A DNA stretch of 64,000 nt, taken from NCBI RefSeq assembly GCF_035084215.1, contig NC_090354.1:12152001-12216000 (forward strand), read 5' to 3'. Positions 20,790-50,462 of the stretch are shown in pieces. A program made the translations under genes and the position numbers. The DNA comes from Heptranchias perlo. Its lineage: Eukaryota. Under the pieces are notes generated by a model, which was not told the DNA's origin, did not search any database, and was given only the letters and a program-made list of their open reading frames with translations. Each line of letters begins with the position of its first letter. Position 1 is the first letter of the stretch.

Positions 20790-21065
20790 GACCTGGTAGC
20801 CTGGATTACAGCTGGCTTTCTCCACATTCCCCATGCAGAAGATGTCCCTAACACCGCCACAACCGGAAATGGCGTTGGCTTCTTTTTAAAACCAATTAAC
20901 TACTTTAACAATGACCCATCTGTTTACTCTCAAGACGCAGTCTACATAGATCCTTCCAAGGAAGCAGAAGGATGTGAGGACAATCCTATGGCATGTACAC
21001 CTGAACTTGCTTCCTGTATACCTAATCTCCCAGAATTTAACTATGGAAAAGACCGGGAATTTTAG
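20790..21065 (+). CDS. AOC3: Copper amine oxidase exon 4 (to stop)
   Basis: Acceptor aaacag|; [22 protein letters not shown] (third Cu His)...[14 protein letters not shown] at 21063-21065. Spliced CDS is 2265 nt = 754 aa. Confidence 0.94.
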
Positions 21066-25797: not shown

Positions 25798-25990
25798 GAA
25801 ACTGCAAATTCTTAAAATCTGAAATAAAAACAGAAAATACTGAAAACACTCAGTGGGTTTATCCACATCAGTAAAAAGAAACGATAGGTTAATGCTTCAG
25901 GTGTACACCTTTCATCAGTTATGAACCCAAAATATTAACCAGCCTTTTTACGGATTCTGATCTGCTATGCAGCATTTTCAATTTCTATTT
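25798..25990. mobile_element. Old degenerate Penelope-derived fold-back (same family as 43314-43543)
   Basis: AATCTGAAATAAAAACAGAAAATACTG...GGTTAATGCTTCAGG...TTCATCAG, followed by a decayed mirror arm. Confidence 0.55.
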
Positions 25991-25997
25991 AATATAG

Positions 25998-26218
25998 TGA
26001 TGATGTGGAGATGCCGGTGATGGACTGGGGTGGACAAATGTAAGGAATCTTACAACACCAGGTTATAGTCCAACAGTTTTATTTGAAAATCACAAGCTTT
26101 TGGAGATTATCTCCTTTGTCAGGTGAGTGAGCTGACGAAGGAGATAATCTCCGAAAGCTTGTGATTTTCAAATAAAACTGTTGGACTATAACCTGGTGTT
26201 GTAAGATTCCTTACATTT
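25998..26218 (-). mobile_element. Penelope-derived palindromic element (pLTR fold-back plus tail)
   Basis: Inverted arms 26036-26122 and 26132-26218; about 36-nt unpaired tail 26000-26035; 12-bp TSD TATTTAATATAG at 25986 and 26218. Confidence 0.85.
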
Positions 26219-26456
26219 ATTTAATATAGAACATTGTACACAGACAACATTATTTACATTCAATCAATGTCGCGATTTCCCGTATTTATTTACTTCTAAT
26301 GACTCCTGGTTCAGAACAGCTAAGGTCAGGAAATTGGATGTGCCTCCCACCCCACCAATGAATTCCCATCCATTAAAATTAACGTGGCTGCTAAAGTGGA
26401 CAATTGTAAACAATTTTACAACACCAAGTTATAGTCCAACAATTTTATTTTTAATC

Positions 26457-26493
26457 CCACAAGCTTTCGGGGGCTTCCCCCTTCCTCAGGCGG
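26457..26493 (-). ncRNA. Minimal type I hammerhead ribozyme motif (mirror arm)
   Basis: Exact reverse complement of 27012-27048. Confidence 0.7.
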
Positions 26494-27011
26494 TGTGGAA
26501 ATGACATTTTCGAATCCTTCGCATTTTAAGATCACAGAACAATGCCTGGTGATTACTGCCCGTTGCCAAGGCAATCACAGTGAGCAGACAGAAAGGTGTC
26601 ACCTAAAAAGGCCACCGAATATGCAAACCCCCAAAAAAAAGAGAGAGAGAGAGATAAGGAAGACAGCATACTCCAAGGCGGCCTTCGAGACACACGACAA
26701 CGCAAAATCGTCGAGCAGAAATTGATAGCCAAGTTCCGCACCCATGAGGACGGCCTCAACCGGGATCTTGGGTTCATGTCACACTACACGTAACCCCACC
26801 AGCGAACAAATGTTATCTGTTTTTAATATAACGGGTCATTGACTGTCTTCCTTATCTCTCTCTCTTTTTTGGGGGGGTTTGTATATTCGGTGGCCTTTTT
26901 AGGTGACACCTTTCTGTCTGCTCACTGTGATTGCCTTGGCAATGGGCAGTAATCACCAGGCATTGTTCTGTGATCTTAAAATGCGAAGGATTCGAAAATG
27001 TCATTTCCACA

Positions 27012-27048
27012 CCGCCTGAGGAAGGGGGAAGCCCCCGAAAGCTTGTGG
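27012..27048 (+). ncRNA. Minimal type I hammerhead ribozyme motif
   Basis: CCGC-CTGAGGA-A-GGGGG-AAG-CCCCC-GAAA-GC-TT-GTGG: CUGANGA and GAAA cores, helix II, palindromic helix III (AAGCTT), helix I CCGC/GUGG. Confidence 0.75.
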
Positions 27049-27514
27049 GATTAAAAATAAAATTGTTGGACTATAACTTGGTGTTGTAAAATTGTTTACA
27101 ATTGTCAACCCCAGTCCATCACCAGCATCTCCACATCATGCTAAAGTGGAGGCAGAGGCGGTGCTGATGTGGTGTTATGAGGGGCGGGGGAGGGGCATTG
27201 TTTGCCACTTCACTACACCATCCAATAGGTCAGCGTTTCAGGATGCTTAGAAGGAGATGGAGACAAGCTTGAAGCCACAGCCATTCAACACTGTCAATAG
27301 CTGTGCCAGCACTTTGCTACCTGGTAACTACAACTGGTCTAGCAACAGATAACACAGCTCTGCTTCTGGCTCTCTGAAGACCCAGATGTTGTGATGACAG
27401 TACCCCGCAGTCCTTGCTGGGTCAATGCAACAGTGCCTGCACATATGAGGGCTGGTATCTTGGAAGGTTTGGCCATTGCTGGCTGCTGATCCTGGCATGT
27501 CATTTTAATACAGG

Positions 27515-28469
27515 TGTAAACAATTTTACAATACCAAGTTATAGTCCAACAATTTTATTTTAAAATCCACAAGCTTTCGGAGGCTTCCTCCTTCCTCAGG
27601 TGAATGTGGAACTGAAATCCTCGAACCTATTGCATTTATAAATCACAGAACAATGCCTGGTGATTACAGAGAGTCTTTTCAACTGCCCGTTGCCAAGGCA
27701 ACCAAAGTGTTCAGACAGATAGGTGTTACCTACAGGCCCACCGAATATACAAACGGCCAGAACTAAAAAAACAGATGATATGGAGATGCCAATTAAAAAA
27801 ACAGAGCTAGAGAGGTAGAAACATAGAAACATCCGGAAGGAAAAGACAGCAATTGACCCGTTATATTAAAAACAGATAACATTTGTTCGCTGGTGGGGTA
27901 ACGTGTAGCGTGACATGAACCCAAGATCCCGGTTGAGGCCGTCCTCATGGGTGCGGAACTTGGCTATCAATTTCTGCTCGACGATTTTGCGTTGTCGAGT
28001 GTCTCGAAGGCCGCCTTGGAGTACGCTTACCCGAAGGTCGGTGGCTGAATGTCCTTGACTGCTGAAGTGTTCCACGACTGGGAGGGAACCCTCGTGTCTG
28101 GCGATTGTTGCGCGGTGTCCGTTCATCCGTTGTCGCAGCGTCTGCATGGTCTCGCCAATGTACCATGCTCTGGGGCATCCTTTCCTGCAACGTATGAGGT
28201 AGACAACGTTGGCCGAGTCACAGGAGTATGAACCATGTACCTGGTGGGTGGTGTCCTCTCGTGTGATGGTGGTATCTGTGTCGATGATCTGGCATGTCTT
28301 GCAGAGGTTACCGTGGCAGGGTTGTGTGGTGTCGTGGACACTGTTCTCCTGAAAGCTGGGTAATTTGCTGCGAACGATGGTCTGTTTGAGGTTGGGTGGC
28401 TGTTTAAAGGCGAGTAGTGGAGGTGTGGGGATGGCCATAGCGAGGTGTTCGTCGTCATTGATGACATGA
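27515..28469 (-). mobile_element. Penelope-like retroelement 3' fragment with GIY-YIG endonuclease domain
   Basis: The part of ORF 27866..28738 inside the element reads C-x4-CxxC linker, NVVYLIRC...YIGET...LRQRMNGH...EHF...E..LI..F.T...GLN. pLTR at 27515-27865; 19-bp near-perfect TSD CATG(T/A)CATTTTAATACAGG at 27496 and 28470. Confidence 0.93.
27567..27603 (-). ncRNA. Minimal type I hammerhead ribozyme motif in the Penelope pLTR
   Basis: Minus strand reads TCAC-CTGAGGA-A-GGAGG-AAG-CCTCC-GAAA-GC-TT-GTGG. Confidence 0.75.
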
Positions 28470-28629
28470 CATGACATTTTAATACAGGGGTACTGAAAGC
28501 ATAACGTACTGTGGGCTGCTTCTGAGGCAGCATCCAGCATACAGTTAATCAGGCATTCACTTATTTCACATGTGCTATCCCAGCTACCATTGGAATAGGA
28601 AACACTGCATTTATCGGTCCTTGGGATGT

Positions 28630-30310
28630 GGACAATGTTGGCAAGGCCGAATTTATTGCTCATCCTTAGTTGCCTTGGGAAGGTTCTGGTGGGCCTTCTC
28701 CAGAACTGCTGCAGTCCTTGTGGTGCTGGTGCTCCCACGATGGTATTAGGCAGGGAATTTCAGAGTTTTGACCCAGTAACAGTGAAGGAACAACGATATC
28801 TGTCTAAGTCAGGATGGTGTGTGACTTGGGGGGTTAACGTGGAGGTGATGATGTTGCCACAGCTTTGCAGCTCTTGCTCTTTTTGGTAGTGGAGGTCGCA
28901 GACGAAGGAGGTGCTGCTGACGTAACCTTGGTGAGTTGCTACAGTGCATCCTTTGGATTGTACATACTGCAGTAGCAGCGCTCCGATGGTGGAGGGGGTG
29001 GATATTCAGTCCAATGTCAGGGGCACTGATCAAGTGAACAGCTTTGTCCTGGATGGTGTAGAGCTTCTTGAGTGTTATTGTGACTGCACCCACCCAGTCA
29101 AGTGGTGAATATTTCATCACTCACCTAACACGAGCCTTGTAGATGGTGACGAGGCTTTAACGGGAAGGAGATGAGCCACTTAGAATGAGTACAGCATAGA
29201 AGGAGGCCACTCGGCCCATCGAGCCCGTGCCAGCTCTTTGTAAGAGCAGTCCAGTTAGTCCCATTACCTGGCTCTTTCTCTGTAGCAAATTTTTTCCCTT
29301 TAAATATTTATCCAATTCCTTTTTGAAAGTCACAATTGAATCTGCTTCCACCTTCCTTTCAGGCAGCGCATTCCAAATCATAACTACTCGCTGCGTAAAA
29401 AAGTTTTTCCTCATGTCGCCTTTGGTCCTTTTGCCAATCACCTTAAACCTGTGTCCTCTGGTTCTCGACCCTTCCGCCAATGGGAACAGTTTCTCATAAT
29501 TTACTTTATCTAAACCCTTCATGATTTTGAACACTTCCATCAAATCTCCTCTTAATCTTCTCTGCTCTAAGGAGAACAACTCCAGCTTCTCCAGTCCATC
29601 CACGTAACTAAAGTCCCTCATCCCTGAGATCATTCTAGTAAATCTTTTCTGCACCCTCTTTAAGGCCCTCACATCCTTCCTAAAGTGCGGAGCCCAGAAC
29701 TGGACACAATTCTCTAGCTGTGGCCGCACCAGTGATTTATAAAGGTTCAAAACAACTTCCTGCTTTTGTACTCTATGCCTCTATTTATAAAGCCCAGGAT
29801 CCTGTATGTTTTTTTAACTGATTTCTTAACCTGTCCTGCCACCTTCAAAGATTTGTGCACAGGTCTCTCTGTTCCTGCACCCCCTTTAGGATTGTACCAT
29901 TTAGTTTATATTGCCTCTCCTCCTTCTTCCTGCCAAAATATATCACCGTGCTTCTCTGCGTTAAATTTTATCTGCCATGTGTCCGCCCATTCCACCAGCC
30001 TGTATATGTCCTCTTGAAGTCTATTACTATCCTCCTCACTGTTTACTAAACTTCCAAGTTTTGTGTCATTTGCAAATTTTGAAATTGTGCCCTGTACACC
30101 CAAGTCCAAATCATTAATATATATCAAAAAAAGCAGTCGTCCTAATATCGACTTATCACAGAGTATCCAGCTGGTCAATGGTGACCCCCAAGATACTGAT
30201 GGTGAGGGACTTGATGATGGTTGCGGCATTGAAGGTCAAGGGGAGATAGCTGGGCTTTCTCCTGTCCGAGATTGTCATTACATGGCACTAATGTGATACA
30301 AACGTTACCT
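28630..30310 (-). mobile_element. Older LINE RT fragment split by a younger CR1 (about 29193-30140)
   Basis: Outer parts: ORF 28809..29120 (YSPLDW..LKKL..IQDKA) and 30165-30310. Inner CR1 (ORFs 29157..29750 and 29906..30229) is closely similar to 12100-13233. Confidence 0.85.
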
Positions 30311-33300
30311 ACACTAATCCTCTGCCAAAGCCAGGGATGTTCAACTCTGTTTGTAGTGGTGAATATGAGAATAACGGTGGGTGGGCACAGAAAACCTTTG
30401 GTGTAGCCGAACCAGTCTGGCATCTCTTCATTGGTCCTCCTTTCTCTAAAAAGCTGAGATATAAGGGAATTCTCATTGATAAACCAATTGGTGGCATCAA
30501 CTGAGCTGCAAACCCATTGCCACAAAGGGTCATGAAAACCCAACTGGAAGAAAATATATGAGAAAATTTATGAAGAAATGGTCCTAAAACTGTTTATTTA
30601 ATCTTTTTACCTTGTTCTATAAATGAACTTCCGCCTGCATCTGATCTCCTAGAAGCCTGAGCTCTCACTATATATGGGCATAATCACAATCAGGTGTCAT
30701 ACTGGAAAATGACACAGAAGAAGATATAACATCATTCCTGCATCATTTGCATGTTTTCACAAAGCTCCCACCTGTTTCAGGTTTGTTGGGAGGGCCCCCA
30801 AGCCCACTGGAAATGCATGTCAAGCGCAAACAGGCAGAGGCTCCTGGTAGTGTGGGTCTCCGCGCCCCCCATTATTTCTGGTCCATTATGCCCGAGAAGT
30901 TGGGCGCATAGGGCGTACCCAACGTGAAGATCAGCCCCCTTATCTCATCATTAACAGCAGATTAAATAGCAGAAGGGATTGGCATTCACTGTAAACAATA
31001 CTATGGACCCTCTCTTTCTCTTGCCCTCGCCTCTGCCTTCTGTTTTCTCTCTTTCCGCTTTCTTCAGTTGATCTTTTGGTGTCTTTTTCTCCTTTTTTCT
31101 CTATGGCTTTTCTTTCTTTCTCAGTCTCTCTCCCTTTCCTCTCTTCCTTTTCCTTTGTCCTGGCCTAGATTTGTTGTTTTGAGCAGCCTTGTACTAGGTG
31201 ACTATCGTCCTCTGCGTAAATTCATGTGCAGATACAAAAGTCTAGGCAAAAAGAACAAAACGCACAGCAAACATGTTTGAACTATTTTTTTTTTAACTGG
31301 AGAATACTTGCGAACATAAGAACCTAAGAAATAGGAGCAGGAGTCAGCCTTATGGTCCCTCAAACCTGCTCCACCATTCAATAAGATCATGGCTGATCTT
31401 CTACTTCAACCCCATTTTCCTGACCTATCCCTATATCTCTTGAGTCCCTTAATGTCCAAAATGTAATTGAATTATTTAATTTGTTGATTAATTGATCAAA
31501 TAATTCAAGTGTAAAGCTTCATGCTGCTTTTTGATCTCCTTAGTTTTCATGGATGTTTTAAATTAAGAATACAAAATAATTTCTTTAGCTTTCATAGATA
31601 TTCAGTTGTACCTTTGCTGCTTGCTGTTTAAATATTTGCTAATGTGAAAGTAGGCACTGGTATTGAGATTATACCGTCCCATGTTTGTAAATGCATTTAA
31701 GGGGAAGCTAGATAAGTACATGAGGGAGGAAGGAATTGAAGTTTATGCTGATAGGGCTAGATGAAGAAGGGTGGGAGTAGGCTTGTGTGGAGCATAAACA
31801 CCGGCATAGACCAGTTGGACAGAATGGCCTGTTTCTGTGCTGTAACATCTATGCAATTCTATGTAACAGTTTTTAATGAAATCGCTCCGACTGTATTAAT
31901 GTCATATTGACCATTATACTTGTACTTGACCGATTTGATGTATTCCAAGGTTGGAGCTTTTAAATGCAGTACCAGCCCAGTGACATCGAGTTATACAACT
32001 CCTGTCCCATCACTAACAGTGACATTAATGTATTTGGAGAAATTTTACCCTTAAATGGAATAATCCTTACTAATTGGAAAAATCTTTACTGATAACTTCA
32101 GATGAGAACAATGTATTCAGGACAAAATGATAAATCTGATAAGGGTTTAAGTTCTAGGTTGAACATTTGGGATTCTTCATCATTTGAATTTGAGTTGCCT
32201 TTTGGGGGTTCTAAGGTTCCTGGATTTGTGACTGAAATCCCAGGTATTGTAACAAACTGTTAAATGGGGGTGTTCTTTATTGCAGTTGGGGTAAATCTAA
32301 ATGATTGTGTTAAAAACTGCTCAGCCATTTTCCTCAATTACAGACAATTCCAGTTAATTTTAGCCCTGAGTTCTGGTGTGGGCAAAGGCATCCTGAGTGT
32401 AATTGTTTTCTGCTGAAGGATAAGCAAATAAATTATTGCATGGCATTATTTATGTAGTGCTGATATGTTTATAATTACCTGTGTCTAAATATTTTGAAAA
32501 TTCTTACCCTGAAGTCTAGTTACTAGAGATAGTCACAAAGAAGTCTTAAGAGTGAAATCGCTGTGGATTTGAACTAATGGTTATATAATAAAGTCATATT
32601 GTGTCCCAATCTCTGCAATGTAAGTCTGGTTCCTGTTTTGCAAAGTTCCTGAATGTAATCCCCAATGTCACAATACATTAAGGCAGAGTAAGCAGCAACC
32701 TCTCTTCCTGAAATCGTAGCTTTTTAATTTTTGTTGTCAAATTCAAAGAGATTGTGGGAATCAGCAGTCAGTTCACAGACTAGTATCCTCCCAAAGGTCA
32801 GAAAATGATTGACTCCATAGGATTAACATCACCCAATCAAACAGAGTTGTTGTAGGACACCCATGTTACTAAACAGATGACCTCCTGTGCACTGACCTCC
32901 TGAATCACAGCCAAAAAATACAAACTTATTTAACCAAAGCAAATCCAAATTCAAAAGGATCCAAGTTAGGAACAATATAGGCGTTTGTAAGTTAACTTGG
33001 TTACAGTTTCAATCTGGCTCAAAGTCTTACCCAGAATCAAACTCTCTGATGTGGAGGTATGGTTCTGGACATATGCTACAGTTCAGATGTTTCCTTATAA
33101 AGTGCAGCGTACTTAAATGCATAACCGTCAACTGGAGATGGTACGCTAACATACAACAGGTTGGAAATAGGAGCATAGTAATGTTTGCAGCCATATATTT
33201 TCACAAGCATATTATGGGAGGAAGTGATAAATACTTCACTCATGTTTCAAGTCCATGACACTTCAGAAGTCACACTTTAAAATGTTGAACTTTGCTACAG

Positions 33301-35478: not shown

Positions 35479-35990
35479 CTATAGAAGCTTCTTTTCCTCT
35501 CGGTTTGTAATTTGTGACACACAGTACGGAACGAATGCCACTGCTGCCAGAGGCACTGCAGCACTTTTACAGAAAGACAATAAATAAAATAGGAGTTCTG
35601 TCTGCGTCGGGGGCTTCACCGAGTCAAACAGGTGCAGGACGACCAACGACGCCACAATACAACTTACTCTGAAGTTGAACTGCTGGCCCCTCTTTCCTTT
35701 GCAGCTTTCTGCATACATGGGGGAGTTGAGAGCTAATCCCAATCCAAACAAGGCTCCCAGGTTCCTGACCAGTCCAGCGAAGGGAGTGCTGTCGATGTGG
35801 ATCCACTCTGCTCGGGCGCACCATCTCTGGGCTTTCTCCATTGACCACAGCAGGTCCACTCCCAGCACTTTCAACAGCAGGTAAAAGCCCAGAGCGAAGG
35901 AAAACAGGAAGAGAGTGATCTTCAGATACTTCTTGAGGGTTGCGTTGTAGATTGCATTAATTCGACCAAACATTTCGGCCACAACCATTC
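35479..35990 (-). CDS. G6PC1: Glucose-6-phosphatase catalytic subunit, copy A, exon 5
   Basis: Acceptor at 35991-35992; GMVVAEMF...[13 protein letters not shown]...FCKSAAVP...EEKKLL*. C-terminal KKxx ER-retrieval motif. 512 nt. Confidence 0.95.
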
Positions 35991-36738
35991 CTGAACGCAA
36001 AATAGTACAAAAGTTAACTCTGAGGTGAATCAGTGAAGTTCCTCAAATCAGTACAAAGCCTCATGTTTATGAATTAATTCGAAAAGCTTGTGGAAGAAAG
36101 ACCTGTATTTATATATTATCTTCTCGCCAAGGCCACTATTTTTTGGTGACTGAATAAGTCAAATCCTGTTTTTATTACATTGGATTAAAACTTTTCGGTG
36201 ACTTTTATAGGCATTCAATTCTGTGGCCAAGAAATTCGACTTGTGCCCAAAACGGGTGCAAAGTTGGCGGAATCATGGCCCGAATCTAATTCGGCTTTAA
36301 ATACTGCCGTTGAACTACAGGCATCATATCGATGCCCCACTGCAGCTCATCACATGGGATGGGGGTGGGGGGGGGGGGGTGGAGAGGGGGAGGGGCAGGG
36401 TAAGGGAGTCGAGAAATTGGCAGCAGGTTGGATCTGGGGGGAGAGAGGCGATCCTTGGGGTGCCTCGAACATGCAGGCAGCAGGCTGGAGTTTTCAGGGG
36501 TCTTGTTTCAGGGACGAGCATTAGACGGTTGGATACAGAGAGGAGATGTATTCTATATTAATTCTAATCATAAAAATATAATCACACTAACTGTAAATAT
36601 CTAGTTATGTCTTTATTCAATACTTAAAATTAACAGTTATAGGTTGTACATAACATGGTATAATTAGCATTATTTATGATCTAGCACAATTTTATCTTTA
36701 ATTGAATTTTGCGATCTGTAAATTATGTTTTCACTGAC

Positions 36739-36854
36739 CTGAAATGACTCCCAGGAAGACCTGATGAGGGAAGTGAGTGGCTACAAATACTCTGGATACA
36801 CAGACACAGACCTGTATTACCCAGAATACCGTCCAAAGTACAGCACGCAGACAC
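36739..36854 (-). CDS. G6PC1: G6PC1 copy A exon 4
   Basis: CLRAVLWTVFWVIQVCVCVSRVFVATHFPHQVFLGVISG, with catalytic R170 and H176. 116 nt, AG/GT boundaries. Confidence 0.95.
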
Positions 36855-37874
36855 CTGTAACAGAAGGGGGAAACTTCAGAACAAAGCAACGGTGAGTGTT
36901 TAATTAAATCTATCGGTCCAATTTTAACTCTGGGCCAGTTTTGGGCGGGTGAGTACTGGTGTAAGTTAGAAACTCATCCACTGCTCCAGAAATGAGGCCT
37001 GGGGTATTTTAACTCCCAAGCCTCCTTTAAATCCCGTCAGTCAACTTCCCACATTTTCCGGCTGGGACCTCCGAGGCCAGGTAGGATCCTCATTTCAGAT
37101 GCTGACGGACCTGCTGTGTATTTCCAGCACTTTCTTTTTTATTTCTGAACTATAATTATTGTGGAGATAGGTCATGAAGGAATGACTGTTCCTGATTTTC
37201 CATCCTGTATTAGCCCAGCTAGCAACTAGAGAGACATTCCCACTGGATGCAGCTGAGGTCTAATATTGGTCAAAGGATGGGATTTAAACCTAAGATCCCA
37301 ATGTGGGATTCAAGCTTTGCACCACTGCTCAGGTAGAGGCCCCACCAACAGGAATCACAAAAAAAAAATCTCAAGTTACTCCCTGAAACAAAGTCTAGTA
37401 TTTCCTTAAGCAATGCATTATAGAATTACATAGAATCTATAGCACAGAAACAAGCCATTCGGCCCATCTGGTCAATGCCAGTGCTTATGCTGCACACAAG
37501 CCTCCTCCCACCCTACTTCATCTAGCCCGATCAGTATAGCCTTCTATTCCTTGCTCCCTCATGTACTTATCTAGCTTCCCCTTAAATGCATCTATACTAA
37601 TCGCTTCAACTATTCCTTGTGGTAGCGAGTTCCACATTCTAACATTTATATATATATCTCTTATATTTGTGGGCCTTCGTTTTAGACTCCCCCACAAGTG
37701 AAAACTTGTAACTATAGGTAATTGTGATTAAGCTGTACTGTGCATGTCGATCAGTACTCTCATTCAAATTCAGACAATCATGCTTATTTAGAAAGTAACT
37801 ATTTCTGCTCGGGGCTTTGTATAGCCAGAGATTGGAGATCTCAAGTATCAACAAATCCAGAATGTGAGACTCAC

Positions 37875-37980
37875 CGATTTTGGACGCAGTGCTGCTTATT
37901 CTGAAATGTGCAGGTCAGAAATGCTGTCACCATCACATACCAAACCCCAGCTGATCCCATGGCATGTCCCGAGGGGCTCC
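37875..37980 (-). CDS. G6PC1: G6PC1 copy A exon 3
   Basis: GSPSGHAMGSAGVWYVMVTAFLTCTFQNKQHCVQNR (H119). 106 nt, AG/GT boundaries. Confidence 0.95.
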
Positions 37981-38100
37981 CTGAAACGGACAAGGCTTGG
38001 CATCAACTTTACGTCATCAGGAACGCTGAAGAAAATCTAATCTTTGGTTTATTAAAATCTACAATTTCTATTATTTGGAAGTGTGCTGGTTTCTCAGTAC

Positions 38101-38210
38101 CTGGCCCTGTTTCACAGGTGATGGGGTATTGCTCTAACACAGGAACAGATGAGTTGCCATAATAGGACGTTTCATGAACCCACCAGTAAGGTCTCTGGCC
38201 AAATAATATC
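38101..38210 (-). CDS. G6PC1: G6PC1 copy A exon 2
   Basis: [36 protein letters not shown] (R83; N96 sequon NSS). 110 nt. Confidence 0.95.
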
Positions 38211-39079
38211 CTGCAAAAAAAAATGAAGAATAATTTTCAGAGGTGAGGTGGGGAGAAACGTTTTTTTTACACAGCGAGTTGTTATGATCTGGAATGCACT
38301 GCCTGAAAGGGTGGTGGAAGCAGATTTCAAAAGAGAAATGGATATGTATTTGAATTGGAAAAATTTGCAGGGCTCTGTGGAAGAGTAGGGGAGTTGGACT
38401 AATTGGATAGCTCGTTCAAAGAGCCTGCACAGGCTTGATGGGCCAACTGGCCTCCTTGTGTCCAGTAAGATTCTATGATTCTATGAACAGACTCACTGTC
38501 TGTAATAAAAAATAATTCCCTTCAATTTTTCACCTGAAGGTGGTACTAATACTGGTGTTTGGTTGCATTGTTGCCCAAATGGCCATTCTTCATGAATGAG
38601 CATGGGCAGCGAGGGTCAGCGGGTTATTCTATCGCGGAGTTTCACAGCTGAGCTGGCTCCTTGCCTCACCCCACATCCGCACATACACACTTTCAAGTAA
38701 ATGCTGTCTTTGGAATGCATACAAAAAAAGCATCTACCAGAAAGGGATATATTATAGAAAGGGCATTTTTAAGAGGGGGGGGGGGTCCAGATTATTTCCT
38801 GGCCCCACAAAAATAATATCAAATTTCCTTGGCTGGGCCCCCTCTCCACTATCGTGGTGTATGACGCACACTCCAATCATTTCCAACCTAATCTGACAAT
38901 CAGGGCCTATGACCCCAATTTGCATATCGAAATGGGCCTGCCACCTGAAACAGGCAAGCGTTTCGGGCCCCTTTCAAAATGGCACCGGCCGCATCATCGG
39001 GCTTAACGGACCCCATTTTGAGGCCGTTACCACCCTGTTGCCGCCGGGCAATACAAGTTAAAATGGACCCTCTAGGTTG

Positions 39080-39460
39080 AGACATCTCATGAAATTCTAA
39101 CAGGACTAGACAGACTAGATGCAGGGAGGATGTTCCCGATGGCAGGGGTGTCCAGAACCAGGGGTCACAGTCTCAGGATACGGGGTATGCCATTTAGAAG
39201 AGATGAGGAGAAATTTCTTCACTCAGAGGGTGCTGAACCTGTGGAATTCTCTACCACAGAAGGCAGTGGAGGCCAAGTCATTAGATGTATTCAAGAAGGA
39301 GATAGATATATTTCTTAATGCTAAAGAGATCAAGGGATATGGGGAAAAAGTGGGAACAGGGTACTGAGTTAGACGATCAGCCATGACCATTTTGAATGGA
39401 GGAGCAGGCCCGAAGGGCCGAATGGCCTACTCTTGCTCCTATTTTCTATGTTTCTATGAA
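39080..39460 (+). mobile_element. CR1 LINE 3' end
   Basis: SRTRGHSL..MRRNFFTQRVLNLWNSLP, then a TTTCTATG tail. Confidence 0.85.
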
Positions 39461-40322
39461 CTAGAACACACTGACTTGTCATTTCAGGATCAGACTTGAT
39501 GCCTGGTGCGACTTGCAATCTGAACTCCTGGTGTGCGGAAGAGACAGTGTTGATTGACTTTACACTTGATTCATGACTTCTGATATAGCTGCTTAGGAGT
39601 GGAGCTGTAAGGCATGTGACAGCTGTAACTGTCAGCACCCGTGGGTCGCACGGATCGAGAGAGGATCAGGAGTCAGAGGTGTGGCTGCTCTCTCTTCACA
39701 TCCCTGCGCATAAGTTCCAACTCAGAGGAAGCTGCCAGGAGAGAGTGGGGGGGGGTGGGAGATTGCTATTTCTAGTTCCGAGATCCTCAGCGCTATCTGT
39801 GTTCTCCGCATTTACCACAGTAGAATGACTGGACATCTAACATACCAAAGTGGCAATAACATTTTATTGTACGCCAATAAGGGTCCAAGAAACTTAAACA
39901 AATCAATATCAGATGATCAAAAAAAAGAAACATGCATCCTCCATAAGAGGAGTCAACACGCATTTGTGTATTTGGGGGGACACATATGATAGGAGAATGG
40001 GACATGGACACAGCTGAAGCTGAGGAGAGTTCCATGAGGAAACTGATATGGAAGGGTATGCCTTACTTTAAGCTGAGAATAGATAAGTCAGTTACAGAGA
40101 GGGAAAAAAACAGGCATTTTAACCAGTAACTCGGGCTTACAGCTGACAGGGAAAGTTGGAGGGACAATAATTACCAGGCAGTCAGCATTGTCAAGTGTGA
40201 CAATGCAATGCACACTGCTCCTCAGTCCTACCCACCCAATGTTGCAGGGCAATCAACGCCTAGAATTGAAAGCCCTTTAAGGCTCTTACGACATTCGACA
40301 GAGTTTCTCAGAAAATACTTAC

Positions 40323-40552
40323 CATTTAAAGATGAGGTTGAGCCAGTCTCCAATGACTGCCACCCAAATGAGTTTGACACCCACCACTTCACACAGGTGG
40401 AACCAGATGGGAAAGAAAACAAAAAAAGTGTTTCTCAGGTCCGCAGCAAAAGAGATAAAAGTGAACCAGCTCTGGGAGTCCTTGTAATTCAGCTGTAGAT
40501 ACTGCACCAGTTCTACCCCGGAGCTGTGGAGCAGGTCCATCCCAGCGTCCAT
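40323..40552 (-). CDS. G6PC1: G6PC1 copy A exon 1
   Basis: [13 protein letters not shown]...[18 protein letters not shown]...[12 protein letters not shown] (K76). 230 nt, donor GTAAGT. In-frame upstream ATG at 40561. Spliced total is 1074 nt = 357 aa. Confidence 0.95.
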
Positions 40553-40659
40553 TCTCTGCATGTTCAGAAACTGTCAAAGAGTCCAGCGAAGATGCCTGTC
40601 TCTCTTTGTTCTTCTCTTTGCCTCTTCTCAGTTTGTTGTCTGAAACTCTCTTCTATGGG

Positions 40660-40830
40660 TCAGTTATATACAACCACCAGCATAAACATGTGTGCAAAGA
40701 GTGATCTTTGGACTTGCAAACTTGACCCAAAGTCAGTGAACAATGTAACATTATTTCAAGCTGACGCAAGTGTGTTTAGAACATTCGCATTGAAAATGCC
40801 TTCGGTATCTGGCTTATTGATTCATCAAAT
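40660..40830 (-). promoter_or_regulatory. G6PC copy A promoter
   Basis: TATATAA 40664-40670; DR1/HNF4-type AGTCCAAAGATCA 40702-40714; CRE-like TGCGTCA 40762-40768; ONECUT-like AATCAATA 40815-40822. Same order as in the copy B promoter. Confidence 0.75.
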
Positions 40831-42559
40831 AATCTTTGGAATTGGACAATAAACAGCTGATTTTAGGTTTCTTCAGTTCAGCCAATTCAGTGCAATTGTT
40901 TTATTATATTTTTCTTTTCATCTTTATTAGACTTTGAAGTGACTAAAATCTCATTTTAATATTAACTACAAATGTGAAAGGCCCATACGGTTTGCAGTAG
41001 AGTATCTTGTAACTTCGTTATTAGCTTCTCTTGTGATCCTGGCCATAGCTCCATTGTTGCCAGAAGCAGCAGTTCAAACCTGAACCAGATAAATCAACGA
41101 GAAGAAGAATCGCTTTTTTGCGGTCACCACAGTTTCCAGTAACGAGGTTTCATTCTGCGGTGTTTACACTAGCCCTACAAATCTCAAAACTTAATCATTC
41201 TCCATTCTCTTCAGGTTTCACTGTGAGCAGGCACGTATTCTCTCTGGCTCTACATGGATTCTCAGTTTGGACATTTTTGGTTTTCTTTTTAATCCTGATC
41301 ATTTAATGTTTGATTTTGATTGAAGTGTATTTTTAAACAGCTCTATCTAAGATTAAAGATGCACATAACGGCCCCTCGGTGGCCTGACGTTCTCCCCCTC
41401 CAATTCTTTCTGGTCCGTTCCTGACTCAGGCAGGGTGAAGTCCCATAATTTCACAATGTGAGCCTAGATGGTGACACATACTTCCCAGCAAGTATCGTTA
41501 GATAATGACCAGGAATGGGAGCTTTGGCCAAATGTTCTCCTCCTTAGCTCAGGGATACTGAGACCAATAGTTACAAGCATTCTCCTGCCCCGATAAGAGA
41601 GCAGCTAAACACAGCCTGTCAAACCTGTGAACCCTTTAATCTGTAGGGCTGTGCATTTGCCAAATAAGCCATCATATGTCTCATATAAGAGATGTTTTTG
41701 TAATGAATTGGATAAGATGTCTATCTCATAACTATTAGAGATGTTTTACAGCTCTAATAACTCGAATTAACACTAAATAACAGGTTCCCCATTAGAAGTG
41801 AGTAGGATACATTTTCTATGGATGCTTATATAAGCTTGTGTTGGGGGTTAAATCTTGAAGATTTAGGAATAGGACTGTCCATGTGGCATGAAGAAGTGTT
41901 TAAATTTGGTGCTGCAATACTGACACTGTGCAGCAGGTGGCTCTTGACAGTCCATACAGATAGCCCCACAAATGAGGAACATGCAAAATAGGCAGGCTCA
42001 GCTGTGCAGTAAGGGTCTTCTGAAACTGCAGTGTTCCCACTCCTGATTACTGTTCAGTGGCCTCCTGCTGAAAGCAGTGTGTGTGGACAATAACCCTTAA
42101 TCTGCAAACTTGGAAATCAGGGGCACCCGGCTAAAAAAATCAGGGGCAAATGGTCAAAATCAGTGACACTTTCTTTAATTATGCAAAGCATTTTGAATAT
42201 TCAAATAATTTGACATTTTCTTTATCAGCAGATTAAAATATAAAATCTGTTGAAATGGGTGTTTTTAAAGTTGGGACCCAAAACAATTGAAATCGTCAAT
42301 CCTAACATTTTCTGGCTCAATTAAAAAAATAATAATACTTATATTCAGAGAGCTCCTTATGATGTGGAAATATCTCCAAGTGCCTCACACAATTAAGTAG
42401 TTTTCAAGTGTAGGGACTATGGGCAAACATAACAACATCCTTCAGGTAACCAACTAAACTGAGATGCTGTTTACCTGTGACTTCACCCCTCCCTAATTTT
42501 TCAACCTCCTCCAGGCCTACATCTCTGTCTGAATCCACCACCCTTCTAACAAAAGAATA

Positions 42560-43015
42560 TAAGAACATAAAAAATAGGAGCAGGGGTAGGCCATACAGCC
42601 TCTCAAGCCTGCTCTGCCATTCAATAAGATCATGACTGATCTTCAACCTCAACTCCACTTTCCCGCCCGATCCCCATATCCCTTGATTCCCCTAGAGTCC
42701 AAAAATCTATCTATCTCAGCCTTGAATATACTCAACGATTCAGCATCCACAGAGAATTCCAAAGATTCACAACCCTCTGAGTGAAGAAATTCCCCCTCAT
42801 CTCAGTTTTAAATGGCCAACCCTTTATCCTGAGACTATGCCCCCTAGTTCTAGACTCTCCAGCCAGGGAAACAACCTCTCAGCATCTACCCTACCTCTGA
42901 ATCTTGTCTGTTTCAATGAGATGACCTCTCATTCTTCTAAACTCCAGAGACTATAGGCCCATTCTACTCAATCTCTCCTCATAGGACAACCTTCTCATCC
43001 CAGGAATCAAACTAG
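42560..43015 (-). mobile_element. CR1 LINE 3' end
   Basis: Tail TAAGAACATAAAAAATAGGAGCAGG plus an antisense RT C-terminus. Confidence 0.8.
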
Positions 43016-43313
43016 TTCAAGATTGAACTTGAACTCAAGAACCTTTGGGCATCATTCAAGTGGACCACCTCAGGACTTTCTCCAGGGCTTGATATCCCCC
43101 TCTATTTGAGGGGACTTAAAACTAGGCACAATATTCTAAACATTGGTCTACTGTGAGTTAGGAACATACAAAAAGGACAGGGGATGACTAACTGATCCAC
43201 CCAGCCTGGTGCAGCCAACATGCTCCATCAATCCAACCAGTCACACAATCTCATAGGAGAGGCAAAATAAAAACATGGAAAAGAACCTTAGACCAATTTC
43301 GGAAAATAAACTC

Positions 43314-43543
43314 AAAATCAAAATAATGCAGATGCTGGAAGTCTGGAATAAAAGCAGATAATGCTGGAAATACTCAACAAGTCAGGCAGCATCTGTGGAG
43401 AAAGAAACAGAGTTAATGTTTCAGGTCGATGACCTTTCGTCAGACTGACGAAAGGTCATCGACCTGAAACGTTAACTCTGTTTCTTTCTCCACAGATGCT
43501 GCCTGACTTGCTGAGTGTTTCCAGCATTTTCTGTTTTTATTTA
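43314..43543. mobile_element. Near-perfect fold-back element of a second Penelope-type family, with hammerhead cores at its centre
   Basis: Arms about 43347-43443 and 43445-43541; 13-bp TSD GGAAAATAAACTC at 43301 and 43544. Core CTGACGA-A-AGGTC-ATC-GACCT-GAAA-CG-TT at 43445-43473. Confidence 0.85.
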
Positions 43544-43659
43544 GGAAAATAAACTCTTCTCCGACCCCAAATCAAACAAGCTCCAGGAGACTGAGAAGCT
43601 GATATCAAGAATTACAACTACCTTCTCCCCCCTTTCATAACTGAAGATATCCTCGACTC

Positions 43660-44880
43660 TCAGTAACTCATCAAACTCCCTTTTCAAGTGAATCCATTCT
43701 TAGTGCATTTTTTGCTCATTTATTCCAGCGGTCTGTGAAAATAAATACTTCCTAATATCTAACCTAACTCTACGTTTTTGTATTTTATACTGATGCCCCA
43801 CTTCTCCCAATCCTATCTACTAAAATATCCTATTCATCTGAACAGAATTTATTCCCACCATCATTTTAAAAACCTTAATTATATCACCTCAAAGTCTACA
43901 TTTCTCCAATGGAAAAAAAAACTGTTCCCTGAGACTATCCTGATAGTCAAGAACCCTCAGGTATCATTCAAGTGGATCTCCTCTGGACTTTCTCCAGAGT
44001 CTCGATATACTCCTCCATGTGAGGGGACCAAAACTGGGCACAATATTCTAAATATAGCCATACCAAGTCCTTGTATAAGGTAAGTATTGCATTTCTAGTT
44101 TTATATGGAACTGCCCTAGCAACACACCCTAACACTTTATTCACTTTCCCTCTGGCCTCGTGACATTGGTTGTCGACTTTTCAATGTTTTGTCAACTACA
44201 ACCTCCAGATCCCTTTCCTGTTCTGTCTTCTACAGTGGATAACCCTGTATGGTTTACACATGCCTGGAATTACCGTGGCCCAAATACACCACACTATATT
44301 TATTCACAGTGAAGGTTTGCCACATATGGGACCATTGCTTTAATGTAACCGGATCAGCCTGCAGTCTATTAAATTCACCTACATTCCTAACTACCACAAA
44401 CAACTTTGCATAATCAGCCATCTTAAGAATTATTCCCTCGATGCCTTCATCCAAAACATTGATAAATTTGGTGAAGACTAATGGTCCCCAACACAGGGCC
44501 TCACCAGTTACCAAACCCAATACAAAGCTACTTCCACCAATTGCCTACCATCAGCCTATGAGACTGTAGCCAATTTGCTATCCACAGTAAAATCTGCTCA
44601 TCAAGCCCACAGGATGAAACCTCACTGAACAGTCTTCTCTGCAGTGTTTTATTGAAGACCATCTTTGGAAATTGAGAGACACAACACCTACAGGGCCAGC
44701 TTTGTCAGCTCTTCAAAAAATTCGACCAAGTTAGTGAGACAGGACCTCCCTTTCAAAAAGCCTTGTTGGAATCTTCTAAAAATTGTCACACTTTCCACGT
44801 GGTTGTACAGTGCATCTCTAATAGTGTCTTCCAACAACTTATCCATAGTCAAACTAACTGACCTATAATTCCTAAGTTCT
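43660..44880 (-). mobile_element. Degraded CR1 RT fragment
   Basis: ORF 44254..44520 (GPLVFTKFINVLDEG...ADYAKL) and a YRSVSLT..VGKLLE-like motif near 44830-44870. Confidence 0.7.
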
Positions 44881-47047
44881 GACCTCAGGCCTTGATGAGC
44901 TGTTAAATATATTAGCCAGTGGCTCGTAACACAGCCCTTGTTTCTTTTGGTGCTCTAAGGGTGAATGGCATTAGGTAGAGCAGCCCAAGCGGAATTCCTG
45001 CTGTCAAGAGGGAGCTCACCAGTGCAAGGGCAGAAAATCCCAGTAGTGTTGCAGTGGGGACACTGCACATGCACCAAAAGATCCAGTGAGGGAACTTAAA
45101 GGGGCAGAAGCACCCAGACCATCTGAAAGAAGATTCCCATTTTAACTTTTTGGCCAAGGTAGGTCTCTGGGGTTGACTGCAGGGAGAGGAGGCTGCTACA
45201 AGACCCTCTCCCTGCATTTGGGGAACTCTGGGCAGTTACTGCAGCTCCCAGGGTCCAACACTGCCTTTGCCACGGTTGCCCCGGGAGGTGTTAGTTATTA
45301 GGGTGGAAGCTGCTAATTGCACGTGGCGGGCAGGGAATAGCGGGCAATGCCAATCCTGATGTGAGCAGGGAGTGGGGGGGGGGAAGGGAAATCCCAGTCA
45401 GGGTGGTGAAGTGACTGTAGATTTGATAGCCTCGTATTCCTGCCATTTCCGCCACAGTCCTGCCTGAATTCTGGCGAGATTGTGACGGTAAATCCTCCCC
45501 ACCCCCCCCCCATCACCTTTTACTTTGATACAAGATACAATAAGATACAATAGATAGAAAGATAAATAAATACTTGGACATGACAGACAGGCAAGGCATG
45601 GGTGTACATCTATGATTCCCCACTAGGTGAATTTACAATCTTAACCAATGCCAACGCAGGGAAGCATGAAGCAGAGAATAGTCAGCCTGTGAAAAATCTG
45701 TGGACCAGTGGTCCTAATCTACTGTCATGGGCCTTCTAGCAATTGACTACAGAGTGGGATTAACAGAGGCCTAGGAACCGATCTACAGCCTGTACTCTCA
45801 GCTGGGGCTGTACATAGTGCTAGGAAATTAAAGGAGGGAAAGAAATTAATAAAACAAAAATACCACAAAAAATAAAAATACATGAAAAGTAAAACAGCAT
45901 CATTGCTTCCAAAATATTTATTATAATAAAACCTTGAAAACAAAACAATTACTCAATGACATGCACAGTGAAAAAGAACAAAATGGTGGCAATTTGTTAA
46001 TCTAGCTAATTGGTCTTCTAAAACACTTAACAATTGTTTTCTCCATGATAAAAACCACCTATATAAAATAAATAATCATCCACCCACAGACAGAAAAAAT
46101 GCTTTATCCCATTGTAGATGTAGTGCATTTGAGATATGTACATTTTCAAATCCTTGTATTACAGCACAAGTTTTGAATAGTTGGATCCCTGTAGAGAAGA
46201 AGCTCTTTACCAGAATTATCCCGTAGTGAGTAAAGTGTTCCCTTATCCAATTACTCATGTCAAACAAGATGTGTAGAACATGAACTGGTATGCAAGCAGT
46301 ATATCCTTTTTTTCCCTCACTGACTCATGCCCCACAGCTCCACAGGGACCAATATGCCTCCATTACCTTACCCATCTGGCCCTTCTTTCATGTGTAAGCA
46401 TATAGATTGAGCGGCAGCAGGTTATTCGATCATGGGGTGAATCACCTGCTGAATACGATCCTATCCTCATCCACACATGCATACTCCAGCTGCTTCAACA
46501 TAGAATAGGGATTGTACGTGAGACCTGTCTGATCTGAACGGGTCTGTAACACACCATGTGCACAGTTTCTCACTGGGTTATCAGGGGAGCTGCAAGTGTT
46601 CCCTTTAAACAAATAGCTTTATTGATACGGAGCCTATTGAAGGCAAACATCGGAGTACAAAACGTAACCCTTTATGCTCTCATTTTACCACACAGTAATA
46701 TGCAGGGTGACTGATATCTAGAGGGTTGACTTAGATAATATGCAACTGAATACAGGCACAGGATTACAAAACAAACAGGACTAATTAAAAATGCAACTGC
46801 TGGTCTGTGATGTAAGCAGTTCTTTCTCAGGAAACATCCGATGCATGTAATTTTTCTGGATCATCTGGGTAGTCACATGTCTAACAAAACCATTCTTTTC
46901 AGTGGGATCTGCTAGCCCTGTACCTTTGTCAGATTTGTTGAATTCAGATTCTGGCCCAAAGTACAACTAACCAAAGTCAAACTGATTTGATTCTTAGAGT
47001 GACTTCACTAAAAGCCCTTAACGTACAAATATTTCAGTTCTAGAAAT

Positions 47048-47559
47048 CTATAGCACTTTTTTCTCTTGTTGGTTCATAACGTGTGATGCAGAGAATGGAA
47101 TGATTGCCACGGCTGCCAGAGGCACTGCGGTACTTTTACAGAAGGATAATAAATAAAATAGGAATTCCTTCTGTGTTGGGGGCTTCACCGAGTCAAACAG
47201 GTGCAGGACAATCAACGACGCCACAATGCAACTTAGTCTGAAGCTGAACTGCTGGCCCCTCTTTCCTTTGCAGCTTTCTACATACATGGGGGAGTTGAGA
47301 GCTAATCCCAATCCAAACAAGGCTCCCAGGTTCCTGACCAGTCCAGCGAAGGGAGTGCTGTCGATGTAGATCCACTCTGCTCGGGCGCACCATCTCTGGG
47401 CTTTCTCCATTGACCACAGCAGGTCCACTCCCAGCACTTTCAACAGCAGGTAAAAGCCCAGAGCGAAGGAAAACAGGAAGAGAGTGATCTTCAGATACTT
47501 CTTGAGGGTTGCGTTGTAGATTGCATTAATTCGACCAAACATTTCAGCCACAACCATTC
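47048..47559 (-). CDS. G6PC1: G6PC1 copy B exon 5
   Basis: GMVVAEMF...QQEKKVL*; KKxx motif. 512 nt, acceptor at 47560-47561. Confidence 0.95.
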
Positions 47560-48349
47560 CTGAACATAAAATAGTACAAAAGTTAACACTGAGATTGTAA
47601 AGACCAAGAAACCGTTGTGAAGTTTTGATATTGAACAAATATGGAACTCCTCTAGTCATTGACTTATAATTTATGACGAAGATTATTTGAGAAATGTATA
47701 GATTTAGTGAGTTGTGCTGAACCCAGTTGCTCGCAAATTAGCCAATGTCCTCTATCTTTAGCAGCAAAAATTGCATTGATATAGTGCCTTATCACGCTGG
47801 TCAGAAACATCTCAAAGCCATTTGCTACATTGAATTACTTTGAAGTACAGTGACTATTGTTACGTAGGCAGGCACTTTGCGCACAAGATCCCATAAACAA
47901 CAATGAGGTGAATGACCAGTTTATCCATTTTTGATGCTATTGACTCAACAATCTAATAAAACAAAGACTAGAGAAAAAAATATATCTGGTTTGGAATAGG
48001 ATTAAAGGTTAATTGGATCAGTGTAGTTAGAAATCATTAAACAGGCAAAATGGCTGCTCTGCTGCTGTGGTCAAGTAACAGATGACAAAAGTAACCTGTT
48101 GAAATAATGGAGATGTAAGAATAGACAAATATTCTGGAATATATGTTTTGATTCATTACTTTTAGTGGTCAGGGAAATTTTTTGCAGAACTTTCCATCAG
48201 GAGATTAAGTAAGTGGGGCAGAGTCCATGATAGGGCACATTGCTTGTTTTGGTCTGGGTCAAGAGTGGGCTTGATGGTTGAATGGCCATGTTTTATTATT
48301 GTAAACAATTTTACAACACCAAGTTATAGTCCAGCAATTTTATTTTAAA

Positions 48350-48388
48350 TTCACAAGCTTTCGGAGGCTACCTCCTTCGTCAGGTGAA
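48350..48388 (-). ncRNA. Minimal hammerhead ribozyme motif (sense to the G6PC copy B pre-mRNA)
   Basis: Exact reverse complement of 48660-48698. Confidence 0.75.
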
Positions 48389-48659
48389 CGATGTGAAATC
48401 TAAACTGGTCATTCACCTCATTGTTGTTTATGGGATCTTGTGCGCAAAGTGCCTGCCTACGTAACAATAGTCACTGTACTTCAAAGTAATTCAATGTAGC
48501 AAATGGCTTTGAGATGTTTCTGACCAGCGTGATAAGGCACTATATCAATGCAATTTTTGCTGCTAAAGATAGAGGACATTGGCTAATTTGCGAGCAACTG
48601 TGTTCAGCACAACTCACTAAACCTATACATTTCTCAATATATCTATACATTTCACATCG

Positions 48660-48698
48660 TTCACCTGACGAAGGAGGTAGCCTCCGAAAGCTTGTGAA
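48660..48698 (+). ncRNA. Minimal type I hammerhead ribozyme motif
   Basis: TTCAC-CTGACGA-A-GGAGG-TAG-CCTCC-GAAA-GC-TT-GTGAA: 5-bp helix I, intact core, predicted cleavage after CUU (48693). Confidence 0.8.
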
Positions 48699-49694
48699 TT
48701 TAAAATAAAATTGCTGGACTATAACTTGGTGTTGTAAAATTGTTTACAATTGTCAACCCCAGTCCATCACCGGCATCTCCACATCATGTTTTATTATGTT
48801 CTTATTTATAGTTAATGGATGCAACAATTGGAAGATTGAGTCGTGCTGAGGTAAACACTTTCTGTTACTGGCCTTATAACAGCATATGGAGTATTAACAG
48901 GAGCTCACTGAGCTGCCCCCACCCCCTGCCATTGTTTAGTAAGTTAAGGCAGTGGGTGGCTGGGCCATAAAAAACAGAGAAGGCCCAGATTCAAACCCCA
49001 ATCTGTGCTGAGTTAGCTGACCTCAGCTGGGATGTCAATAGGGCCACTTTACTTGGTTTCAGTGTTCCATGTGCGATAGGAGGAAATTGACCAGGGTTCC
49101 TGCTCCTGGTCATTATCCAACGACTCATGCTCGAGTGGTAGTGTATGGATGAGGACAGGATAGGGCTCAGTTGTGATGCAAACTGGCAGTCAAAGCTTAT
49201 TGTTAAGGCTCATAAGTTAAGAATGGTCATTTGGGCTAGGTACTGGTGGGTCTCCAGTGCCCATGGAACCCTGTCCCAGCAAGGAGTCAACACCTTCAGG
49301 AAAGGAGGAAGGGATAACATTGACAGTAAAAAAGAAAAGGAGAGGAAACAGTCTTATAAAGCCAGGCCCCATTCATTGAAGTAAGGCTCAAGAATAGTCC
49401 TTAGAACAGTAAGAAGTATATTACGAACATACGAAATTGACAGGCAGGAAAAGACCAGCTTGTCCATTAAGCCTGCCCCACACCATGATGGCCTCACATC
49501 TTCATGAAATCTTTCCAGGGACAATACTACAACACTTCTTTTTGTAAATAATATCTCAAATTATAAATTACAAATTTCCTTCATAGCTGGAACAGGATGT
49601 TGCACTGTTGTGTAAAAATCCTTCAATTCAGAATGAATAATTTGACGACTGCATAGAAATAGCACAAGAAATATTACACAAGTGCATTAACCAC

Positions 49695-50462
49695 AGCAAC
49701 GCAGAAAAGTGTAAAGTGATACATTTCGGTAGGAAGAACAAAGAGAGGCAATATAAACTAAAGGGTACAATTCTAAGAGGGATGCAGGAACAGAGAGATC
49801 TGGGGGCGCACAAACCGTTGAAGGTGGCAGGGTAGGTTGAGAAAGCGGTTAAGAAAGCATACGGGATCCTAGGCTTTATAAATAGAGCCATAAAGTACAA
49901 AAGCAAGGAGGTTATGATGAACCTTTATAAAACACTGGTTCGGCCACAACTGGAGTTTAGTGTCCAGTTCTGGGCACCGCACTTTCGGAAGAATGTGATG
50001 GTCTTAGAGAGGGTGCAGAAGAGATTTACTAGAATGATTCCAGAGTTGAGGGACTTCAGTTACATACATGGACTGGATAAGCTGGAATTGTTCTCCATAG
50101 GGCAGAGAAGGTTGAGAGATATTCAAAATCATGAAGGGCCTGGACAGAGTATATAGAGAGAAACTGTTCCCATTGACGGAGGGGTCATAGATTTAAGGTG
50201 ATTGGCAAAAGAACCAAAGGCAACATGAGAAACAACTTTTTTACACAGCGAGTGGTTGTGATCTGGAATGTACTGCCTGAGGGGGTGGTGGAGGCAGATT
50301 CAATCGTGGCTTTCAAAAGGGAATTGGATAAGTACTTGAAGGGAAAAAATTTGCAGGGCTACAGGGTGGGGAGCGGGACTAGCTGGATTACTCTTGCAGA
50401 GAGCCAAGACAGACTCGACAGGCCGAATGGCCTCCTTCCGTGCTGTAACCTTTCTATGATTT
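49695..50462 (+). mobile_element. CR1 LINE 3' fragment
   Basis: ORFs 49914..50156 and 50198..50530; closely similar to 12390-13233. Confidence 0.9.

Follow-up and report, generated by a model that had tools for sequence, protein, structure and literature searches.

Truncated Penelope-like insertions with minimal hammerhead motifs and fold-back architecture in Heptranchias perlo

Minimal type I hammerhead motifs are known from metazoan Penelope-like elements (PLEs). Among their general traits, Cervera and De la Peña (2014; PMC4209133) described a nucleotide that separates position 9 from 10.1, a G10.1-C11.1 pair and a palindromic 15.2-16.2 segment. The G-C-U-U form appears in their Fig. S3 for Chrysemys picta (turtle) and Philodina roseola (rotifer), and a mirror motif was noted on the opposite strand of a truncated PLE. 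A Schistosoma motif in that study showed no cleavage as a monomer and low cleavage as a dimer. Here we analyse 64,000 nucleotides of Heptranchias perlo (assembly GCF_035084215.1, contig NC_090354.1, positions 12,152,001 to 12,216,000; the window), in which a first-pass annotation had proposed a family of hammerhead-bearing Penelope fold-backs.

We found that seven hammerhead-type cores in the window represent four independent insertions, I1 to I4, each flanked by a target-site duplication (TSD). They are very probably truncated PLE insertions bounded by their TSDs and carrying a minimal hammerhead in the pseudo-long terminal repeat (pLTR), with a ribozyme that is predicted to be weak in the active element and silent in the fold-backs. 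The proposed copies are real motifs, but as a family they are smaller than the number of cores implies: mirror arms are nearly identical to their partners, and so do not constitute independent evidence.

What this locus adds to the published class is one more vertebrate lineage. The extra A and the CUU triplet that the annotation had singled out are present, but are not new, since these features, like the AGCU palindrome, were already published (PMC4209133). No shark is among the 56 motifs listed in the searched supplement of that paper, and our search of open-access literature found no report on shark Penelope or Neptune retrotransposons, nor on shark Penelope ribozymes. The ribozyme motif by itself matters little. 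The question on which these copies bear is the origin of the inverted pLTR and one-sided tail of PLEs.

Hammerhead motifs and identity of the element

The insertions and their TSDs are as follows.

25998..26217, minus strand: I1 fold-back, with its tailed arm on the minus strand (to 26131) and its mirror arm on the plus strand (26132-26217)
25986-25997 and 26218-26229: I1 TSD, 12 bp
26401..27138, plus strand: I2, with mirror arm 26401-26665 (minus) and tailed arm 26666-27138 (plus)
26389-26400 and 27139-27150: I2 TSD, 12 bp
27515..28469, minus strand: I3, a lone 5′-truncated untailed copy
27496-27514 and 28470-28488: I3 TSD, 19 bp with one mismatch
48300..48784, plus strand: I4, consisting of mirror arm, captured host DNA and tailed arm, in an intron of a G6PC1-like gene
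48287-48299 and 48785-48797: I4 TSD, 13 bp
43314..43543, minus strand: F43, a fold-back that belongs to a second family, has a minimal hammerhead of its own and is tailed at one end only
43301-43313 and 43544-43556: F43 TSD, 13 bp

TSDs thus flank all five insertions examined, and their AT content is 0.58-0.92. All sites listed by the first-pass annotation are real, but it missed F43, which falls within its stated range and whose cores lie at 43443 (minus) and 43445 (plus). Decayed older relics related to the F43 family occur at 25819-25919, where there is a degenerate hammerhead core, and at 37096-37144.

The hammerheads of I1 to I4 are located as follows.

26088..26128, minus strand: I1 tailed-arm hammerhead with a broken core (G8>A, G12>A)
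26132..26166, plus strand: I1 mirror-arm hammerhead with an intact core, lacking the 5′ strand of helix I
26455..26495, minus strand: I2 mirror hammerhead
27010..27050, plus strand: I2 hammerhead, with predicted cleavage after CUU at 27044
27565..27605, minus strand: I3 hammerhead, the window's sole intact family copy whose insertion has no mirror arm
48349..48389, minus strand: I4 mirror hammerhead
48659..48699, plus strand: I4 hammerhead

Nucleotide C3 of the intact cores is at 26132, 27016 and 48665 on the plus strand and at 26489, 27599 and 48383 on the minus strand; that of the seventh, mutated core is at 26122 (minus). For these same motifs, the annotation gave the positions of the helix I ends (27012, 26457, 27567, 48660 and 48350). 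A search with the family's pattern gave seven matches in the window and none in each of 100 dinucleotide shuffles. The kind of descriptor search that had been named as a check bore out the cores as well: a family-free descriptor gave eight matches to core plus helix II, six of which passed a strict filter, versus none in each of 60 shuffles. An Rfam scan of the window (E up to 1) returned no hammerhead family; its three matches, all to microRNA models, scored far below the gathering thresholds, and two lay on the F43 hairpin. No further copy came from applying a covariance model (R1) to the window and to 13 of 20 loci; its eight strong matches are training sequences or their mirror arms.

The core (CUGANGA ... 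GAAA ... NUH) is intact in 6/7 cores, the exception being the tailed arm of I1. Both mutations in that arm are CpG-type changes, and helix I is present there. The copy at 26132 does have the intact core claimed for it, but its helix I lacks a strand and its mirror at 26122 is mutated, so neither arm of I1 carries an intact ribozyme. The unpaired nucleotide between 9 and 10.1 and the G10.1-C11.1 pair occur in all seven arms and in L001, a distant relative from metagenome data. AAGCUU, a palindrome at 15.2-16.2 that provides no real helix III, is likewise found in 7/7 arms, in agreement with the description of helix III as a palindrome only. Monomers of I2, I3 and I4 fold with helices I and II formed around an open core.

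For pair counts, we took one row per insertion plus L001 as the only distant relative (5 related sequences, 11 pairs, 54 cells), leaving out L002-L006, L015, L017 and L012. Helix II was said to vary while staying paired, and it does: pairing is 100%, with two of five pairs doubly changed. The similar claim for helix I holds in the counts (86.7% paired, 2/6 pairs doubly changed), but not for the 26132 arm, which lacks this helix. The covariation score is 0.464 versus 0.211 for shuffled alignments, and none of 500 shuffles scored as high; 52 of the 500, however, had as many as four doubly changed pairs. We regard the covariation as supportive rather than as statistical proof, given that the structure was derived from the same related sequences.

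Among 18 metagenome loci, only L001 has this hammerhead subtype. In its segment 940-1090, L001 (59% protein identity) keeps the TATA box, an initiator (Inr)-like site, the hammerhead subtype and the downstream motif. L002-L006, L015 and L017 belong to another PLE family whose minimal hammerhead has a 6-bp helix II and, following GAAA, a UAUA segment; two diverged copies of it are present in L003. One match in L012 looks spurious. Pattern scans of viral contigs and of metagenome contigs gave no matches, and a protein scan of viral contigs found no relative. Two pattern matches in genome contigs have no hammerhead alongside and were judged to be chance.

The link to PLEs comes from the coding end, since I3 and the long arm of I2 run on into the end of an open reading frame (ORF).

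27869..28459, minus strand: 3′ fragment of a PLE ORF (P0001) in I3, with a CX4CxxC linker and a GIY-YIG endonuclease (EN)

In I2, I3 and L001, the hammerhead lies in the pLTR on the sense strand, downstream of the EN ORF, as expected from the PLE hammerheads to which the annotation had likened these motifs. The linker corresponds to residues 48-56 of P0001. In the CCHH motif, C91, H115 and H131 are invariant and C95 nearly so in 11 proteins. The best three of 27 protein matches are from sharks (Heptranchias 94%, Scyliorhinus 85% and Mustelus 81% identity), and several longer relatives, including the 94%-identical P0002, contain RVT_1. A CX2-5CxxC linker before the EN is a trait common to Neptune and Nematis (PMC8557442). 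I1 to I4 therefore likely represent a Neptune-type PLE, although Nematis is also compatible with the linker. A search for full-length shark N-termini matched the query alone. Five shark gene models (P0005, P0008, P0015, P0016 and P0023, annotated as cytochrome P450, NOXP20-like, XRCC5 and septin isoforms) hold sequence of this element, which could reflect exonisation or annotation contamination.

Element ends and a two-ended integration model

The two ends of each fold-back differ. The relevant features are listed here.

27105..27138, plus strand: PLE "tail", present on one arm only of each fold-back
27067..27118, plus strand: predicted structured domain downstream of the I2 hammerhead, also present in L001
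27607..27640, minus strand: predicted pLTR start region of I3, a consensus match only, with a TATA-like box at -41 and Inr-like sites at -14 and -8 relative to C3
48401..48644: inverted host-DNA copy between the I4 arms, 235/237 identical to its source at 47680-47923

A tail occurs on exactly one end in all four fold-backs (I1, I2, I4 and F43), and the other end is offset by 39, 34, 36 and 31 nt, respectively. Measured from C3, the tailed ends are at +120 to +125 and the untailed ends at +84 to +89; the single arm of I3 ends at the untailed site. The untailed end is just past a hairpin of the downstream domain, which consists of an invariant 6-bp closing stem and this 6-bp hairpin with two compensatory pairs (four sequences including L001; a count as high in 30 of 500 shuffles). 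A possible pseudoknot helix in the domain shows no double-sided change. The I4 arm folds at a z-score of -2.3. The domain is a likely candidate for an element of binding or initiation by the reverse transcriptase (RT). Downstream of the core, no ATG occurs before the tail end in I2 and I4; the one found there is a candidate start codon only.

At the other side, arm 5′ ends relative to C3 are -16 and -16 in I4, -9 and 0 in I1, and about -1 and -1 in F43. Thus, 6/9 arms (F43 included) have a 5′ end 0-16 nt before C3, and most units here are reduced to arms of about 100-140 nt that end near the core. TATA-like boxes are found at -41 (I3) and -39 (L001), and Inr-like sites at -14 to -4. The tailed arm of I2 starts within the 3′ end of the endonuclease.

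All seven arms of I1 to I4 run through the CUU cleavage site, and so their templates were uncleaved. This passage would also suit a motif that serves as a structural or protein-binding element at the RNA's 5′ end and does not cleave in vivo. Published minimal hammerheads are poor cleavers (PMC4209133), and for the Anolis element PMC11167929 reports that catalytic mutants had no effect on insertion in vitro and that no RNA-seq reads ended at the cut site. However, the catalytic core is kept across the insertions and in L001 while the helices vary, and in the presence of protein the Anolis motif does cleave, with C3/G8 rescue (PMC11167929). We therefore consider a non-cleaving motif unlikely.

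We propose that the element's endonuclease would make a staggered cut, 12-19 bp apart, and that both resulting 3′-OH ends would prime reverse transcription on uncleaved element RNA. One priming site would be at the tail end and the other just after the conserved hairpin, i.e., at the two end intervals given above. Synthesis of both cDNAs would then end, in many cases close to where pLTR transcription starts, immediately 5′ of the core. Microhomology repair would join them head to head, in one case (I4) adding a patch templated by host DNA nearby. The one-sided tail and the 31-39-nt offset fit priming from both staggered nicks. Moreover, cleavage and extension of both strands have been shown for the Anolis Poseidon protein, with synthesis beginning at two sites on either side of the tail (PMC11167929), which match the two end sites seen here. 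The chance that both 3′-OH ends of one staggered cut served as primers, with head-to-head joining of the two cDNAs, we put somewhat above even. That the arm 5′ ends reflect run-off at the pLTR start is an even call. At the level of titles and abstracts, open-access literature yielded no twin-priming work on the PLE mechanism.

In I4, the inverted 244-nt intronic host copy has its source about 365 nt away, and its entry is marked by a 5-nt microhomology and a short repeated patch. These are signs of template jumping or of repair of the polymerase-theta type.

The main competing explanation derives the mirror arm from self-priming or snap-back, e.g., on an antisense template as proposed for Adineta Penelope, or from fold-back second-strand synthesis on the first cDNA. 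The arms of one insertion are nearly identical (differences of 2/87 in I1, 11/266 in I2 with seven at the junction edge, 1/105 in I4 and 5/97 in F43) and share subfamily variants, the centre of F43 is a short palindrome, and PMC3846280 argues for the same model from junction palindromes. By contrast, if the first cDNA were copied, it is not obvious why synthesis should break off 31-39 nt early, at the end site of I3. In addition, the start of the I2 mirror arm is set back about 175 nt within the tailed arm, and the I4 arms are kept apart by 244 nt of host DNA. Self-priming is a possible but doubtful origin of these mirror arms.

Short palindromes make up three of the four insertions, and copies of the family are very abundant, as would be the case if the fold-backs were a non-autonomous family moving as a unit, similar to miniature inverted-repeat transposable elements (MITEs) or retrozymes, with an active ribozyme processing its own RNA. 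However, the centre and arm length differ in every fold-back, the TSDs vary in length and sequence, the ends lack symmetry, head-to-tail units that each bear a ribozyme are absent, and the ribozyme is predicted to be buried. MITEs have symmetric terminal inverted repeats, a TSD of fixed length and a shared internal junction; we rejected this class in view of the asymmetric ends, the TSDs of 12-19 bp and the different centres. Independent movement as a unit is improbable overall. Finally, long inverted repeats are known trouble spots in assemblies (PMC8557442), and no single contig spans the whole tested stretch. Yet the TSDs, one-sided tails, arm-specific substitutions and common architecture in two families make it extremely improbable that the palindromes are assembly or library artefacts.

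Several points weigh against our overall reading. The covariation rests on five related sequences. P0001 reaches 20 bits (E 8e-4) with Pfam GIY-YIG, for which the curated cut-off is 22.6, and the window's truncated copies include no RT of this element, so that the clade rests on the linker. Three of nine arms (both of I2, and I3) reach far upstream of the predicted start. There is no TATA match in I2, and none within 70 nt in the L002/L003 family. The dual-priming step is favoured only slightly because PMC11167929 found no strand preference for either start site, and PMC3846280 prefers to explain head-to-head repeats by self-priming on an antisense template. Cleavage, priming and start sites in this family are predictions from sequence. 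Short, young, TSD-bounded copies nevertheless make the dual-priming and run-off models testable by counting ends across one assembly.

In a DNA sequencing run (X1), 29,753 contigs align to a 535-nt piece of I2. Depth collapses past the tail end, with a family-wide drop and loose ends near 27140. The summed depth is roughly 4e4 to 2e5 times that of unique flanking sequence, which indicates an order of magnitude only and not a copy number. We took depth along the element neither as expression nor as cleavage.

Predicted fate of fold-back transcripts

In predicted folds of transcripts through I1, I2 and I4, on either strand, the pairing probability of helix II is 0.000, because the motif pairs with its own mirror arm; in single arms it is 0.79-0.96. 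The two copies in a fold-back are on opposite strands, and consequently cannot form a cis dimer. Based on these folds, self-cleavage of the genomic copies is doubtful, and ribozyme activity is probably absent in the fold-back copies. In the RNA of an active element, only weak cleavage would be expected of the motif, either as a dimer or with the help of protein.

Host read-through of a fold-back would yield a long RNA duplex that buries the ribozyme, and such duplexes would be ADAR substrates. In the probable RNA run X5, T>C changes at 27043, 27044, 27051 and 27052 amount to 12.4, 9.8, 4.1 and 5.1% of depth (24, 16, 14 and 23 contigs), whereas in X1, from the same sample, these sites are at 0.002-0.2% (1, 2, 2 and 7 contigs). 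The enrichment over DNA is 26- to 6,500-fold and is spread over 14-24 contigs per site. T>C corresponds to A>G on the antisense arm, as expected from A-to-I editing. The further sites that we checked, three T>C and one C>T, are genomic (ratio 1-3). The RNA status of X5 is a guess, and the signal comes from one run of unstranded contigs. Two points speak against editing: no matching A>G row is listed for the sense arm, and the T>C signal could also come from a rare copy with strong expression. Missing variant rows were not taken as conservation, since the known variants at 27026 and 27124 are missing too. Overall, A-to-I editing of fold-back transcripts is plausible, if a little short of even. 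In open-access literature on editing in connection with Penelope and inverted repeats, only a review on human transposable elements was found.

If editing holds, the palindromes may be a main source of ADAR substrates in cartilaginous fishes. More broadly, though less probably than not, shark Neptune fold-backs could be a genome-wide fossil record of two-ended integration on one uncleaved RNA, with perhaps 10^4-10^5 palindromes per genome feeding A-to-I-edited double-stranded RNA into host transcripts, so that single insertions would play an Alu-like part. Here, two fixed priming sites would be set by the conserved stem-loop, possibly a pseudoknot, and synthesis would run off at the pLTR start.

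Neighbouring genes and comparison with known systems

I1 to I3 are flanked by an amine oxidase gene on one side and a G6PC1-like gene on the other; I4 is in an intron of a second G6PC1-like copy. Some of the exon motifs behind the G6PC1-like assignment are ones that we presume to be characteristic.

3647-20900, plus strand: copper amine oxidase gene
35479-40572 and 47048-56303, minus strand: two complete-looking G6PC1-like genes
62859-63136, plus strand: first exon of a third G6PC1-like copy, in opposite orientation

The region of the amine oxidase gene also includes a C-rich tandem array with a 21-nt period (6950-7850).

The motifs of I1 to I4 resemble the minimal type I hammerheads of metazoan PLEs in their arrangement (CUGANGA-H-helix II-GAAA-palindrome-UH), the extra nucleotide after A9, the G10.1-C11.1 pair, a helix I of 4-6 bp, the location in the pLTR, the G-C-U-U form and the second motif on the opposite strand (PMC4209133). 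Unlike the motifs in that paper, helix II of this family has 5 bp and a 3-nt loop.

Non-LTR retrozymes (bioRxiv 10.64898/2026.07.22.740005) are similarly PLE-derived and non-coding, have a type I hammerhead, and are reported in one chondrichthyan. However, they form head-to-tail tandems with a ribozyme in each unit. I1 to I4 are head-to-head or single copies, and we rejected this class since the insertions contain no head-to-tail tandem units.

Like the Poseidon element PAc of Anolis carolinensis, the shark element has two internal ends that bracket the tail and fall in a predicted AC-rich stem-loop, uncleaved RNA as template and mostly AT-rich targets (PMC11167929). It differs in belonging to another clade, with a CX4CxxC linker. 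Also, the PAc ORF starts at stem II, whereas here the first ATG after the core, the candidate start, is at the tail end (I2, I4).

A parallel in architecture is seen with insertion units of EN-containing PLEs, which have an inverted truncated 5′ copy, a tail of 30-40 bp at one end, a TSD, TATA and Inr signals in the pLTR, and host DNA captured between pLTRs (PMC3846280, PMC8557442). In contrast to those units, most insertions here consist only of arms of about 100-140 nt, and the DNA captured in I4 is a local inverted copy.

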